Origin: an uncultured bacterium
GTDB lineage: Bacteria; Patescibacteriota; JACMRA01
DNA: 64,000 bases
Assembly (NCBI GenBank): GCA_963784355.1
Contig: CAWAQU010000012.1
Span: 1 to 64,000, forward strand
Direction: 5' to 3'
The translations under genes were made by a program, and so were the position numbers. The stretch's first letter is position 1, and every line of letters starts with the position of its first letter. A model generated the notes under the pieces. The model did not search any database. It had not been told where the DNA came from and saw only the letters and a list, made by a program, of their open reading frames with translations. Below are positions 8,998 through 49,156 of the stretch, piece by piece.

Positions 8998-10113
8998 TTA
9001 ATTATTATAAACAAACTCGACAATTTTATCTACTCCATTTTCTAGCTCCAAATTTTCATAATTTTCTTTGATCTGCGTAATCTCATTTTCACTTGAGAGT
9101 AGTATATGAACTTTTTTGGATAGGCTTTGAATATTTGGTTCATATAATCCAATTTTTGAGTGAACTACAAAATCTTTATTGCCCAATTCCTGCTCCCACA
9201 GATAGCTATTAATCAAAATAGGCTTTTCTAGCTTAGCTGCTTCAAAGATTATACCCGGACCAGCTTTAGTCACAATCACGTCAGCCAGATTCATCAGCTC
9301 ATAAACCTCAGTCGAAAAACCATAGATATAGATACTATCTCGTTTTAAACTGCTTTTCAACTCTTCAGCTCTTCTTTTTAAATTTTCATTTTTTCCACAG
9401 ACCAAAACGATATTTCCCTCAATATTTTCCTGTGCAATGGTTTTTAAGATTGTAAACCCATGATTAAGACCCTCACCACCACCAATAATCAATATAGTTT
9501 TACCGGATCCGATTCGCATTTTCTCTCTAAACTCAGCTATTTCTTGTTTATTCATAGCCTGATCAAACTTTTTGGCAATTATAGGTCCAAACGTATGTAG
9601 TTTTTCTTCTTTCACGCCATAAGTAACTGCCAAATTTTTAGCTTCTTTGCTGTAAACAATAAATTTTTGATTTTGATTTAAAGTCCAAACAGGATGAAAG
9701 ACAAAAGGATCGGTAATTACAGTAAATACTCCAGGTTTATAATCTTCAAACTTCAAAATCGAGTTTAAAAAATGACCGAAAAAGTAGGTATTTACAATTT
9801 TGTCCGGCTTGTGCTCATTAATCAGTCTCTTAAGCTCGGGAATCATTAAAATCTGCCCAAAAAAATGAGTAATTAGTAAAATAGGCAAAAATTTATTGAG
9901 CCAATAGAAAAAAGCCCATAAGTAGTTGAATCTGTTTGTAAATATGCTATAAACAGCCTCGCTTAGACTCTTTTTAAATCCTGCATTGCCTGTACCATCA
10001 GCTAAAATGACTTCCACATCATCTCCATACTGCCTAGTAAAGCTTTCAGCCAGAGCTTTGGCGGCAAACTGGTGACCGCCTCCATATTTAGCGTAAAGTA
10101 TTAAAATTTTCAT
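8998..10113 (-). CDS. MGDG synthase/UgtP-like GT28 glycosyltransferase
   Basis: GGGH..AA, VITD..HPVW, GGGEG, VCGKN, TKAGPG, EQELGN motifs. Confidence 0.85.
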   Translation of the reverse strand: MKILILYAKYGGGHQFAAKALAESFTRQYGDDVEVILADGTGNAGFKKSLSEAVYSIFTNRFNYLWAFFYWLNKFLPILLITHFFGQILMIPELKRLINEHKPDKIVNTYFFGHFLNSILKFEDYKPGVFTVITDPFVFHPVWTLNQNQKFIVYSKEAKNLAVTYGVKEEKLHTFGPIIAKKFDQAMNKQEIAEFREKMRIGSGKTILIIGGGEGLNHGFTILKTIAQENIEGNIVLVCGKNENLKRRAEELKSSLKRDSIYIYGFSTEVYELMNLADVIVTKAGPGIIFEAAKLEKPILINSYLWEQELGNKDFVVHSKIGLYEPNIQSLSKKVHILLSSENEITQIKENYENLELENGVDKIVEFVYNN

Positions 10114-10121
10114 TAAATTAA

Positions 10122-12317
10122 TTAGCTTTCCCTAACTCTAAAGTAGTGATCCCTCTTTTTACCTATCTTACATTCCACTACTAAAAACTTACGTCCCATA
10201 AACTGAATAAAGGCTTGTTTTTTCAACAATTTCTCAGGCCATTCTACAAAAATTACACTTGAGGTGTTGATAAATTCCTCTTCAATCCATTTCAAATCCT
10301 CGTCTGTAATATTTTTCAATCTATGCAAATCCATGTGACAAACCTGCTCAAAGTTACCGGTTTTAACTGCCGGAGATGATGTCTTAAGTTGGTATTTCTG
10401 CATTAAAGCAAAGGTTGGAGATGAAGCCGCTATGGTTGTACCTAACTTTTTACAAATTTCTTGTACCAAAGTAGTTTTTCCGGCTCCCATATCTCCTCTG
10501 AGGAAGTATAGACTGCAATTTTGAGAAATTACTTGGGCAGTAATAATATCTACAGCAACTTCAAGTGCAATCTTTTTATTCATCGGTACATCAGTAATCT
10601 TGGTCTCATCTCTTCTAAAGCTACTTGGAGAGAAGGTTTGTGGGTTAAGTCCTTCTAAAAAGTCAACTAATTTGAAGCTTTCAGGATGCTGACGGATTTT
10701 ATTAAGTGCAACTTCTTCAATCTGTCTAACTCTTTCACGAGTTACATTAAATACTTCACCAATTTCTTCTAAAGTATGGGCAATTCCGGTACCGTCCAAA
10801 CCAAATCTAAGTAAAATAACCTTTTTCTCTCTTGGTTCCAAACAGTCGTCGATAATTCGGATAATATGATTTCTAAGTACACGATTAGATGCTTCATCAA
10901 CAGGTTGCGCAGTAGCTTCATCTTCAATCATTTCTACCATGTGGGTGTCGCTATCTTCAGAAAAACCTACTAAAGTATCAATAGAAACCGTATCCTGACT
11001 AATTCTCTTAAAGTAAAAAATTGTATCAATATCTACTTCTAGCTTTTCTGCCAACTCATCATCGGTCGGTTCACGGCCCAATTCATCAATTAGAGCTCTT
11101 TTCTCTCGTCTATATCTGTTTAGTTTTTCTTCTACGTGGACAGGTAAACGTACAGGGCGACTTTGATCTGCCAGTGCTCTTCTAATACTTTGCTCAATCC
11201 AGTAACTGGCATAAGTTGAAAATTTATAACCACGTCTCCAGTCAAATTTCTCTACAGCTCTCAATAGTCCGATATTTCCTTCTTGAATTAAATCTAAAAA
11301 GGCTAAATTTCGCCCCATATATTTTTTTGCTGCATGCACAACAAGTCTAAGATTAGCATTGTTCAATTCTCTTTTTGCTGCTTGATCCCCTTGTTCGATA
11401 CGCTTAGATAAGTCAACCTCTTCCTCTTTATTTAAAAGCGGGTAACGCGAAATATCACGAATGTAGTTTTGTACAGCGTCATCCTTTAATTCTTCCCCTC
11501 CCACGTCACCGGCAAGACTTCCGGACAATTTCTCAGCAAGTTCCAGTTCCTGCTTTTTCATGGCTTCCTCATCCTCTAGTACATTCCAAAGATTATCTAA
11601 AGTATTCTCATAGCTAATTGGTGCACCGCTATCTTCACACAAATCCATTATATCTTCTAAAAGCCTGACATTTCGCTCCGGAAACGGCAACATGTATAAA
11701 ATCTCATCCTCAGTTACAAAGCCTCTAGTGATACCTTGCTTGATCATTTCTACTACTTTTGCCTGGAATTCAATAGACTCAGCTTCAAAGGTAGGATACA
11801 ATGAGTTATCATTTTCTATAAATTTCTTTAAAGTTTTGCCTTGATTTTTATTGGCTCTCTGCTTTGTCACTTTCTTCATTTTGATTCTTACACCGTCCTC
11901 AGTGACTTTATAACGTCTACTACCTCTTTGTTCGATAGAATCATCATCTAGAGCTAATTGTCTATTTAAATCAGATGTAGAAATTAAGTTCAAGCCTAAA
12001 ATACCTTTTCTAGTTACAAGTTCATTAGGTTTAGCTTCTCGGGGGCCGTTAAATTCATCAAGCTCATCGGCTTTTAAACCGTCAACTTCCTCACCCTCCA
12101 CTGCTGCTACTTTGAGCAATTCTTCATCTACTACTTTTGGCTCAGCAGGTTTTGCTTTAAAAATTTTAGTAATTTTTGGGGTTTTGGCCTTAGAGGTTTT
12201 TGCCGACCCAATGGTCAGCCTTTTACGTTCAGCAGAAGACTTTTTACCTTTTTTCTCAGATGTTTCAGATTCGTTGGTATTGGCTTTGAGGGTTTCAGCG
12301 ATAGTTTTTTTAGACAT
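10122..12317 (-). CDS. rpoD: Primary sigma factor RpoD with C-terminal TsaE (YjeE) ATPase domain
   Basis: [41 protein letters not shown]; then in frame [29 protein letters not shown]. Confidence 0.9.
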
Positions 12318-12440
12318 TTGGCAAGTATAGATTAGATAAAGTTATATTATAGCAAATTTTTTGTTTTTATACAATAATACTACAAGTTTTAAGTAAAAAA
12401 GGTTACAAAAAGGCACTCTTCTCTTGACGAAGTTTTTCTT

Positions 12441-13508
12441 ATGGTATTACTTTATTTAACAGATTGTCAAACATACAATATTATGTCTGCTAAAAAACCT
12501 CATATGAACAATACAAAAGGTACAATAATTGATGCTTCAAGAAAACCGGAAACATCTGCAAAGCCTGTAGTCGAAGCCCAGCAAGCTACACCAGTTTCTA
12601 AAACCGAAACCCCACAAGGTGTTAAACCTGCAGACACTTTTAAAAATTTTCTTAAAAGGCTTAATCTGACGGTTAACCAGATTCTAGCTCTGTTAATTGG
12701 TTTATCAGCTATTGCTGCAACTTTATGGGTTGGTTTTTATTTGATCCCTCATATCACAGATCAAACTGATGAGGCTGTGGCTTTAAAGACTAAAAAAGAA
12801 AAGGAAGAGAAAGAAGCTAAGGACAAAAAAGACCTAGAGGATAAGTTGAGTTCCGAATCGTCAGCACTTAAATTAAATGAAAAAAGTGAATGGCTTTTAG
12901 ATATGAAAGTTAAGGTAGGCGATGCAGAGGCCACAGATATTAAAATTGCAATGAATAAAAACTGGGCCCCTAAAACCGTAGAGAATTTTCTCAGGCTTAG
13001 TTATAGAGGGTATTATAACGGTCTCAACTTTCACCGCATGGTAGAAGAAAAAGATTTTAGTGTTATTCAAGGAGGTGATCCTCAAGGAACAGGACAAGGG
13101 GGAGAAAGTAGTTTTGGCACAGGGGTAGGGGTACCTGACGAATTATGGGAAATTAAGCCTGTTGTAAGTTCTTCTGAAACTGAAAATCAAATTACAAATG
13201 ATCCTAAATTTAGAGAACCGAGCCTATACGCTGATTTTGACAAGACTAGAGGTACGGTAACTTATAGAAAGGGACTTATATTAATGGCAAAAACTCAGGA
13301 ACCTGACTCAGCTACCAGCCAATTCTTTATTACACTTGATAAAACAATCTTACCTGCAGAATATACTGTATTTGGAGTGATTAGTACTGAAAGCATGGGT
13401 GTACTTGATACTATCTCTAAAGATGTAGATCCTGAAACAAACCCTGAAAACCCTAATCAAACAAAACCAAGTAAAACAATCAAAATTGAAAAAGTTGAAG
13501 TAGTTTAA
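12441..13508 (+). CDS. Membrane-anchored cyclophilin-type peptidyl-prolyl isomerase (true start probably downstream, ~12483)
   Basis: APKTVENF, GYYNGLNFHR, IQGGDP.GTG.GG, SQFFIT, YTVFG; one TM helix. Confidence 0.85.
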   Translation: MVLLYLTDCQTYNIMSAKKPHMNNTKGTIIDASRKPETSAKPVVEAQQATPVSKTETPQGVKPADTFKNFLKRLNLTVNQILALLIGLSAIAATLWVGFYLIPHITDQTDEAVALKTKKEKEEKEAKDKKDLEDKLSSESSALKLNEKSEWLLDMKVKVGDAEATDIKIAMNKNWAPKTVENFLRLSYRGYYNGLNFHRMVEEKDFSVIQGGDPQGTGQGGESSFGTGVGVPDELWEIKPVVSSSETENQITNDPKFREPSLYADFDKTRGTVTYRKGLILMAKTQEPDSATSQFFITLDKTILPAEYTVFGVISTESMGVLDTISKDVDPETNPENPNQTKPSKTIKIEKVEVV

Positions 13509-22696: not shown

Positions 22697-22772
22697 CGCG
22701 GGATAGAGTAATTGGCAGCTCACCTGGCTCATAACCAGGAGGTTCCAGGTTCAAGTCCTGGTCCCGCCACCA
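22697..22772 (+). tRNA. tRNA-Met(CAT), initiator type
   Basis: Cloverleaf, CAT anticodon, C1:C72 mismatch, encoded CCA. Confidence 0.9.
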
Positions 22773-22785
22773 AAAAATAATTAGT

Positions 22786-22863
22786 GGGATTGTAGCTCAG
22801 TTGGTTTAGAGCGCTGCCCTGTCACGGCAGAGGTCGCGGGTTCGAGTCCCGTCAGTCCCGCCA
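22786..22863 (+). tRNA. tRNA-Asp(GTC)
   Basis: Cloverleaf, CTGTCAC loop, GGTTCGAGTCC, GCCA end. Confidence 0.95.
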
Positions 22864-28892: not shown

Positions 28893-30388
<1,496 letters not shown>

Positions 30389-49080: not shown

Positions 49081-49156
49081 GCCAGCATAGCTCAGTTGGT
49101 AGAGCGAGTCACTCGTAACGACTAGGCCGCAGGTTCGATCCCTGTTGCTGGCTCCA
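49081..49156 (+). tRNA. tRNA-Thr(CGT)
   Basis: GCCAGCA/TGCTGGC acceptor stem, CTCGTAA loop, GGTTCGATCC, CCA. Confidence 0.9.

Follow-up and report, generated by a model that had tools for sequence, protein, structure and literature searches.

Can the housekeeping sigma factor of a bacterium also be an enzyme of tRNA modification? The question is raised by a gene in the first 64 kb of contig C12 of an uncultured patescibacterial genome (G000; 1.14 Mb in 13 contigs, estimated to be 81% complete, GC content about 33%); this whole stretch of 64,000 nucleotides is referred to below as the window. On its reverse strand, at positions 10122-12317, the window carries one open reading frame in which the primary sigma factor RpoD is followed by TsaE, the ATPase of the bacterial pathway that makes N6-threonylcarbamoyladenosine (t6A) in tRNA. 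Few bacterial proteins are as conserved as the primary sigma factors, and to our knowledge none of these has been described with an enzyme appended to region 4. A first-pass annotation, made from the sequence of the window alone, had claimed the in-frame fusion and warned that it could be artefactual. The open frame and the Pfam domains bear out the claim, and at the level of sequence the fusion is confirmed as real and not an artefact of assembly. The TsaE domain probably serves the t6A pathway, in a class of bacteria where no TsaB partner could be recognised.

Organisation of the fusion gene

The frame comprises 731 codons from an ATG start to a TAA stop; it has no internal stop and no in-frame TGA or TAG. 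Pfam places six domains on the translation, all above the curated cut-offs. The sigma-70 regions 1.1, 1.2, 2, 3 and 4 follow each other in the usual order, and all coordinates given here for the gene refer to the reverse strand. Region 1.1 (Sigma70_r1_1) occupies residues 185-258 (11544-11765) and scores 24.7 bits against a cut-off of 22.5. Regions 1.2 and 2 lie at residues 280-387 (11157-11480), with the r1_2 match at 280-313 and the r2 match at 320-387. Region 3 spans residues 397-474 (10896-11129), and region 4, which Foldseek also matches to structures of sigma-A region 4, spans residues 491-543 (10689-10847). The RpoD models are the best-scoring NCBIfam families for this half of the protein, despite scores below the equivalog cut-offs (NF004208, 361.3 against 555; NF006666, 345.1 against 572; TIGR02393, 284.7 against 354).

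The C-terminal domain scores 80.3 bits against the TsaE family PF02367 in the protein search (cut-off 26.6) and 84.1 bits in the genome search, and covers profile positions 19-106 of 128. It is the only TsaE above the cut-off in G000. Likewise, the fusion is the only match to region 1.2 in the assembly; the remaining matches to regions 2 and 4 fall in frames of 174-249 aa, and a scan of the genome contigs with the whole fusion protein returned only an unrelated sigma factor. The fusion therefore appears to supply both the housekeeping sigma factor and TsaE from one gene. It appears to be the only primary (group 1) sigma factor found in the 81%-complete assembly; because of this incompleteness, a second copy is possible when G000 is taken alone. 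In the RNA polymerase holoenzyme, we infer, this half of the protein does the ordinary work of RpoD.

Ahead of region 1.1 the protein carries a basic N-terminal extension (residues 1-180; 11778-12317), rich in lysine and arginine, which matches no Pfam family. The extension is conserved across the class, with many invariant columns in an alignment of 43 fusion proteins. It is mostly disordered in the full-length AlphaFold2 (AF2) model, where residues 1-110 lack order and a small module of a helix and three strands at residues 112-150, approximately, reaches a predicted local distance difference test score (pLDDT) of 62-71.

Conservation of the fusion across the class

The class considered here, an order in the taxonomy used, includes 27 species-level genomes in two families and 19 genera; homologues of the fusion are labelled Gracilibacteria, Absconditabacteria-like or Patescibacteria by their sources. 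The junction between sigma region 4 and TsaE is preserved in one frame in all 27 genomes, and in 25 of them TsaE is part of an open frame of 714-812 aa. The two exceptions, G018 and G041, have different causes. In G018 a frameshift inside sigma region 2 splits the gene into frames of 385 and 373 aa, and the stretch from region 4 through the linker to TsaE is continuous. In G041 the contig is only 2013 nt long, and the frame runs off its end, beginning with the end of region 4.2 and the RpoD tail. G018 is the only single-contig genome of the class, and its two frames overlap (L027:1591-2748 and 2633-3754, forward strand); the split may reflect an error of sequencing in the assembly or a genuine lesion of an essential gene.

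The fusion is restricted to the class in the phylum-wide sample of 401 genomes, where genome sizes range from 0.4 to 2.1 Mb. A 252-aa query made of sigma region 4, the linker and TsaE matched from end to end, within a single frame, in all 25 class genomes of the sample, with 46-80% identity, and in none of the 376 other genomes, where the sole match was to sigma region 4 only (G039). Two class members (G011 and G041) are outside this sample; an unpublished genome (G173) is inside it and presumably also among the 376. The first-pass annotation had suggested a search for the combined architecture in related genomes, and database proteins supply it: all 45 that match the linker and TsaE part (402-1280 aa) carry Sigma70 regions 1.2, 2, 3 and 4 together with TsaE. 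The alignment of fusion proteins includes 43 of these, with P0017 (623 aa) and P0020 (633 aa) omitted as N-terminally short. A cluster of the ESM Atlas found through the homologue P0043 carries Sigma70 and TsaE on 100% of its 55 members, a figure that refers to that homologue's own cluster only. The alternative that relatives encode two separate proteins is excluded for the class.

In the phylum sample as a whole TsaE is common, being present in 385 of the 401 genomes, and most of the best 150 matches are separate frames of 133-223 aa. The premise that TsaE is normally a protein of its own is thus correct. In a tree of 37 TsaE domains, 25 fused and 12 from other families, a branch with support 100/99 separates all fused domains from the others, consistent with a single origin. 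Both halves of the gene are under purifying selection. For the TsaE domain, nonsynonymous divergence (dN) is 0.05-0.37, and synonymous divergence (dS) is saturated or about 1.7. Because dS is saturated in most pairs, only two pairs yielded dN/dS ratios (0.099/1.698 and 0.368/1.731).

Reads over the junction had been named as a place where a stop or an indel might come to light. A public DNA run, recorded as a soil metagenome, contains a fifth of the sampled words and yields four small contigs, one of them 100% identical over 10449-10636, a stretch that takes in most of the linker and the beginning of TsaE. No stop or indel appears there. The support this gives is weak, because the run may be the source sample itself. 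The contigs cover only 10301-10636, 11155-11305 and 11369-11519, and positions 10637-10688 are among the uncovered parts. No RNA sequencing runs holding the fusion gene were listed.

The probability that an error of assembly or sequencing joined two genes, or that the gene is decaying, is negligible in our estimate. The source is a metagenome-type bin, 81% complete, and the frameshift in the sigma part of G018 would be in keeping with such an error; the same junction recurs, however, in each of the 27 class genomes, which were assembled independently, and in all 45 protein clusters, drawn from several sources; selection is purifying on both halves, and the public contig is identical over 10449-10636. 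The earlier concern about indels finds no support here; the window is densely and normally coded under translation table 11.

The use of table 11 deserves a remark, as Gracilibacteria and Absconditabacteria read TGA as glycine. An alternative code was considered for G000 and rejected. With TGA taken as sense, the number of frames of at least 300 aa changes from 435 to 466, against 452 for TAG and 513 for TAA; moreover, the fusion gene terminates with TAA and contains no TGA in frame.

Anatomy of the junction

The position at which the added sequence begins can be determined by comparison with unfused relatives. RpoD proteins of three other families (G026, G028 and G030) end exactly with a tail whose aligned counterpart in the fusion is residues 544-556 (10650-10688), just before the linker, as expected from the earlier statement that RpoD normally ends right after region 4. 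The tail forms a helix at residues 547-557 in the AF2 models of both the 252-residue piece and the full-length protein. This helix was considered as a new conserved element following region 4 and rejected, because by alignment it is the ordinary end of RpoD. Read from the alignment, the stop codon of RpoD is in effect replaced by a linker of about 22 residues (approximately 557-579; 10581-10649). The first-pass annotation had proposed a linker of about 45 aa: the continuity of the frame stands, and the length does not, since residues 544-556 are the native tail and the added part is confined to about 557-579.

The linker is flexible in both models and poorly conserved. Mean column identity is 0.84 in the sigma core (residues 185-543), 0.81 at residues 544-562 and 0.69 in TsaE, and falls to 0.47 in the linker at 563-578, the least conserved part. 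Disorder is predicted by pLDDT values below 50 over residues 558-574 in the 252-residue piece (alignment positions 79-95) and, in the full-length model, over residues 562-575. At about residue 580 the TsaE fold begins. The predicted template modelling score (pTM) reaches 0.60 in the model of the 252-residue piece and 0.30 in that of the whole protein, and therefore no fixed packing of TsaE on the sigma factor is predicted.

A linker of this kind raises the possibility that the fusion exists as two proteins in practice, released by cleavage of the linker or by an internal start, and serves only as a device for co-expression. TsaE does fold independently of sigma region 4 in the model, and the linker, being disordered and variable, is open to proteases. 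Still, we find this very unlikely. There is no conserved Met, Val or Leu start ahead of the TsaE domain in 25 aligned class genomes, so that a separate TsaE product is not expected; promoter-like sites within the gene number 12, against 11.3 in shuffled sequences, which is no excess; and the data contain no sign of a cleavage site.

An addition of another sort was seen in the RpoD of G027, a member of another family (L054, a frame of 493 aa). Here a different C-terminal extension, about 55 residues long, follows the RpoD tail; it contains two cysteine pairs (CPEC ... CDRC) and looks like a zinc ribbon.

The TsaE domain

The TsaE domain extends over residues 580-731 (10125-10580), with the PF02367 match at residues 599-698, and is modelled by AF2 with a pLDDT of about 90, exceeding 90 in the 252-residue piece. 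The best five Foldseek matches in the PDB all belong to the TsaE/YjeE/YdiB family (1htw_A, 6n9a_E, 6nak_D, 5np9 and 1fl9_A), with 154-162 aligned columns against chains of 152-165 residues, E-values of 1.6e-6 to 1.1e-4 and template modelling (TM) scores of 0.59-0.63 normalised to the target. The nearest structures, those of HI0065, Thermotoga maritima TsaE and Bacillus subtilis YdiB, are thus aligned over approximately their whole length. A phmmer search against the PDB also recovers TsaE.

The residues by which TsaE is recognised are retained, and the four motifs quoted in the first-pass annotation are all present in the translation. Invariant among the 43 fusion proteins are G608, M610, G611, G613, K614 and T615 of the Walker A loop GDMGAGKT (G608-T615; 10473-10496), S633 and P634 of the SPTF motif (residues 633-636; 10410-10421), H661 and D663 of the switch-II motif HMDLHR (residues 661-666; 10320-10337), and E692 and W693 (10239-10244). 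In the SSPTFAL context of the second motif, T635 and F636 are at least 90% conserved, as is the segment WIEEEL of the acidic helix alpha-3. The switch-II motif aligns to HFDLYR of HI0065 and corresponds to HxDxYR with histidine for the usual tyrosine.

Published work assigns roles to these elements in T. maritima TsaE (PMC6009658). Thr42, Glu108 and Trp109 bind Mg-ATP, and by these roles E692 and W693 of the fusion would be the Mg-binding glutamate and the tryptophan in contact with the gamma-phosphate. The SPT(F/Y)T peptide extends into TsaD's active site, and helix alpha-3 docks on the helical bundle of the TsaB-TsaD interface. Judged by its motifs and predicted fold, the TsaE domain is complete and looks like a functional, catalytically competent ATPase.

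TsaE and the t6A pathway without a recognisable TsaB

The follow-up suggested for the locus included a check for the partner genes of TsaE. The result is mixed: tsaD is present, no separate tsaE was found in the 81%-complete assembly, and tsaB was undetected throughout the class. G000 has one TsaD of 402 aa on contig C9 (L018:1465-2673, reverse strand) and two genes of the Sua5/YrdC family. In TsaD the two metal-binding histidines, the aspartate and the lysine that stacks on switch II of TsaE (K222) are invariant in 38 relatives, which are the aligned ones among the 120 matches listed. Because K222 is invariant, co-variation between this lysine and the change from tyrosine to histidine in TsaE is uninformative.

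Two further features of the tsaD locus were observed. In the TsaD of G000 about 35-40 residues are inserted directly after the first N-terminal helix, the one that makes up the dimer bundle in solved TsaBD structures; relatives of this TsaD are 365-544 aa long. Adjoining tsaD on contig C9 are genes for two tandem paralogous small proteins of 146 and 160 aa (L018:299-739 and 856-1338, reverse strand), with identical signal-peptide-like N-termini and identical hydrophobic C-terminal halves.

TsaB was sought with two profiles and not found in any of the 27 class genomes. TIGR03725 gave only weak matches in the class, either in frames of TsaD size (367-434 aa) or in a frame of 159 aa in G009; the latter was considered as TsaB and rejected, being an N-terminal piece of TsaD. 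A second profile was built from eight short patescibacterial TsaB proteins of other families. Against all open reading frames of G000 it found nothing better than TsaD itself (best E-value 0.51), and in the class it matched TsaD-size frames only, in five of the 27 genomes, and nothing in the other 22. The same models detect a gene of TsaB size in 12 of 15 genomes from other families. The three without such a match, G026, G028 and G030, are 97-100% complete, which shows that genomes retaining TsaE without TsaB exist elsewhere in the phylum.

Fusions of TsaE are also found elsewhere in the phylum, where it is often the C-terminal partner, mostly of TsaC. Among the best 120 long proteins containing a TsaE of the patescibacterial type, 67 have a partner of the TsaC family (Sua5_yciO_yrdC), 14 a partner of the TsaD/TsaB family and 13 an HD domain; none has a sigma domain. 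HAD, ComEC and other domains occur as further partners among the matches listed. In G028 a TsaC-TsaE fusion of 353 aa (L017:1459-2517, reverse strand; proteins P0196 onward) is directly followed by tsaD.

From these elements we arrive at the explanation that we consider the likeliest, and rather probable in absolute terms: the TsaE domain engages and resets TsaD in a pathway without recognisable TsaB, and the sigma part is a normal housekeeping sigma factor. The bifunctional gene would have arisen once, in the ancestor of the class, by the joining of the native sigma C-terminus through a disordered linker of about 22 residues to a complete P-loop ATPase. The tethered TsaE would bind TsaD in an ATP-dependent manner, and its hydrolysis of ATP would reset TsaD after each transfer of a threonylcarbamoyl group to A37 of tRNAs that decode ANN codons. 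The pathway would then consist of Sua5, TsaD and TsaE, with TsaB dispensed with or replaced by a substitute that cannot be recognised. This explanation is preferred because the elements of TsaE that contact TsaD are conserved, because the domain is under selection, and because TsaC-TsaE fusions in relatives lacking TsaB provide a precedent.

Several observations weigh against it. The switch-II tyrosine is not kept: the position is histidine in 21, glutamine in three and aspartate in one of 25 aligned genomes. In the alignment of 43 proteins the histidine H665 is invariant, and the corresponding residue is tyrosine in 11 of 11 stand-alone patescibacterial TsaE proteins. The fused domains score 64-91 bits against the Pfam family, compared with 99-143 bits for stand-alone relatives, and sit on a long stem branch of 2.25 changes per column. 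The long branch together with the lower scores would also fit a change of function. No TsaB was found in the class, and TsaE is reported to bind only the TsaB-TsaD heterodimer and neither homodimer (PMC6009658, PMC9654439). Finally, the class genomes are metagenome bins with a completeness of 64-93%, and the single-contig exception is the one that carries the frameshift (G018).

Part of this evidence suggests that TsaE might have left the t6A pathway altogether, to act as a kinase or autokinase of the UbK type or as an ATP switch on the sigma factor, RNA polymerase or other targets, with TsaD working alone like mitochondrial Qri7. The lack of a detectable TsaB, the long stem branch with its lower family scores and the replacement of the switch-II tyrosine by histidine all agree with such a change. 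So do reports on other bacteria: the TsaE/YdiB family has been described as a 'ubiquitous bacterial kinase' (PMC6733980), one report names a transcription-related substrate of the kinase (PMC13241743), and two Mycoplasma species are reported to manage with TsaD in the absence of both TsaB and TsaE (PMC4615747). However, SPTF and the acidic alpha-3, which contact TsaD and the helical bundle in the solved complex, belong to the best conserved stretches of the TsaE domain; elsewhere in the phylum, genomes without TsaB fuse TsaE to TsaC beside tsaD, which keeps it in the t6A pathway; and in a pneumococcal study the cell needs ATP hydrolysis and not autophosphorylation (PMC6733980). We therefore regard a departure of TsaE from t6A synthesis as improbable.

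Possible coupling of TsaE to transcription

If the TsaE domain acts on TsaD as proposed, does its attachment to a sigma factor have a function of its own? The fusion certainly fixes the synthesis of the two activities at one TsaE per sigma factor. It also means that any TsaD-binding activity is set beside sigma region 4, close to the side on which RNA leaves the polymerase. A functional coupling, which would build on the preferred explanation and is compatible with it, could take several forms. TsaE might recruit TsaD or the t6A step to the holoenzyme, or its ATP-bound or TsaD-bound state might modulate the availability of the sigma factor or the use of promoters; in a further form, the sigma factor would be titrated by TsaD, and a new mode of recognition between TsaD and TsaE would replace the TsaB-dependent docking. 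On balance we hold a coupling in any of these forms to be unlikely.

The choice of the partner speaks for it. In 81 of the best 120 TsaE fusions the partner is TsaC or a TsaD/TsaB-family protein, whereas here it comes from outside the t6A pathway. The fusion is kept in every genome of a class of 19 genera, on the sole primary sigma factor, and the linker begins exactly at the tail of region 4, which is seated on the beta-flap in the solved holoenzymes matched by Foldseek. Moreover, none of 12 tsaE loci from other families has a sigma gene within 1.5 kb, so that trivial read-through between neighbours is not an obvious origin of the fusion; this test is weak evidence, because the flanks are short. 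On the other hand, the linker is variable and disordered, and no docked arrangement of TsaE and sigma is predicted (pTM 0.60 and 0.30). Fusions are common in reduced genomes, as illustrated by the addition to the RpoD of G027 and by the joining of TsaE to many unrelated domains.

Surroundings of the gene

The neighbours of the fusion gene were named from their translations, without a family search. A glycosyltransferase-like gene on the same strand (8998-10113, reverse) starts 8 nt after the stop of the fusion and is probably co-transcribed with it. Divergent from the fusion lies a gene with a cyclophilin-type domain (12441-13508, forward), whose product has a long N-terminal region and a membrane segment; it is also adjacent to the fusion in G018. 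An extended -10-like sequence, TGCTATAAT, is found 28 nt upstream of the ATG of the fusion gene (12346-12354, reverse strand) as a possible promoter only: the frequency of the TGCTATAAT pattern upstream of the gene is no higher than expected by chance. A scan of the region for consensus promoters did not exceed shuffled sequences, and terminator-like sites likewise showed no excess over shuffles.

Elsewhere in the window, a 16S rRNA gene at 28893-30388 (forward) matches the bacterial model end to end, with 1496 nt for 1533 positions, and three tRNA genes are present on the same strand (22697-22769, 22786-22860 and 49081-49153). No 23S rRNA was found in the 64 kb.

Relation to known systems

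No paper describing an RpoD-TsaE fusion was found in a full-text collection of about 8.1 million PMC papers and 0.36 million preprints, in agreement with the earlier statement that none was known, and the word TsaE is absent from a 2026 preprint on the domain architectures of sigma factors. The sequences themselves are already public, since annotation pipelines have named these proteins either 'RNA polymerase primary sigma factor' or 'TsaE'; what appears to be undescribed is the architecture, together with its setting in genomes without a recognisable TsaB. Because the annotation gives only one of the two names, reconstructions of pathways will miss one function. What is new appears to be a domain architecture that joins two well-known families and not a new kind of system.

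Current models of bacterial t6A synthesis give a central place to the reset of TsaD by TsaE at the expense of ATP and to the strict requirement of TsaE for TsaB. A class with a sigma-tied TsaE and no recognisable TsaB offers a natural test of TsaE acting on TsaD alone. The t6A literature records occasional losses of TsaE, and the loss of TsaB together with TsaE in two Mycoplasma species (PMC4615747); no description of a TsaE-positive, TsaB-negative state was met in the excerpts of PMC6009658, PMC9654439 and PMC4615747. If the coupling discussed above were true, it would link transcription initiation physically to the ability of the cell to decode ANN codons. In eukaryotes and archaea, the counterpart of the complex was originally described as associated with chromatin and transcription (the EKC complex, named in PMC4615747). 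A hard-wired link between sigma and TsaE, if it had this role, would provide a tractable bacterial model for the old and unexplained association of EKC with transcription.

Compared with RpoD/SigA, the group 1 sigma-70 factors, the fusion has the same regions 1.1 to 4 and a tail that matches that of unfused relatives; it differs by the conserved N-terminal extension of 180 aa and the C-terminal TsaE, and scores below the equivalog cut-offs. Domains following region 4 are known from the extracytoplasmic function (ECF, group 4) sigma factors, alternative sigma factors in which the C-terminal domain regulates the activity of the protein itself. In contrast to these, the sigma factor here is the housekeeping one, the appended enzyme is one of a different pathway, and the models predict no contact between it and the sigma body.

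With the TsaE/YjeE/YdiB proteins (PF02367; 1htw, 5np9, 6n9a, 6nak/6s84), the ATPase subunit of TsaBDE, the C-terminal half of the fusion shares the fold and the motifs, namely Walker A GxxGxGKT, SPT(F/Y), HxDxxR and EW, in a genome that also has TsaD and Sua5. Those proteins stand alone with about 150 aa, whereas TsaE here is a domain at the C-terminus of a primary sigma factor, with histidine for tyrosine in switch II, about 10 inserted residues following the SPTF hairpin, a long stem branch and no TsaB found in the class. The TsaC-TsaE fusions of other Patescibacteria resemble the present protein in carrying TsaE as a C-terminal module, and two of the genomes that have them, G028 and G030, are without a detectable TsaB; their partner is an enzyme of the same pathway, while here it is a factor of transcription initiation. 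The archaeal Kae1-Bud32 proteins (MJ1130 and Haloferax volcanii HVO_1895; PMC4615747, PMC9654439) are likewise natural fusions of an accessory ATPase/kinase subunit of the t6A machinery. In them the accessory subunit, Bud32, is unrelated to TsaE and is joined to the catalytic Kae1, in contrast to the sigma partner found here. The minimal systems of the Qri7 type, with a TsaD-family homodimer, as in Mycoplasma haemofelis and Mycoplasma suis (PMC4615747), need no TsaB, as the class also appears to do. Those systems, however, are also without TsaE, whereas in the class described here TsaE is retained and under selection.

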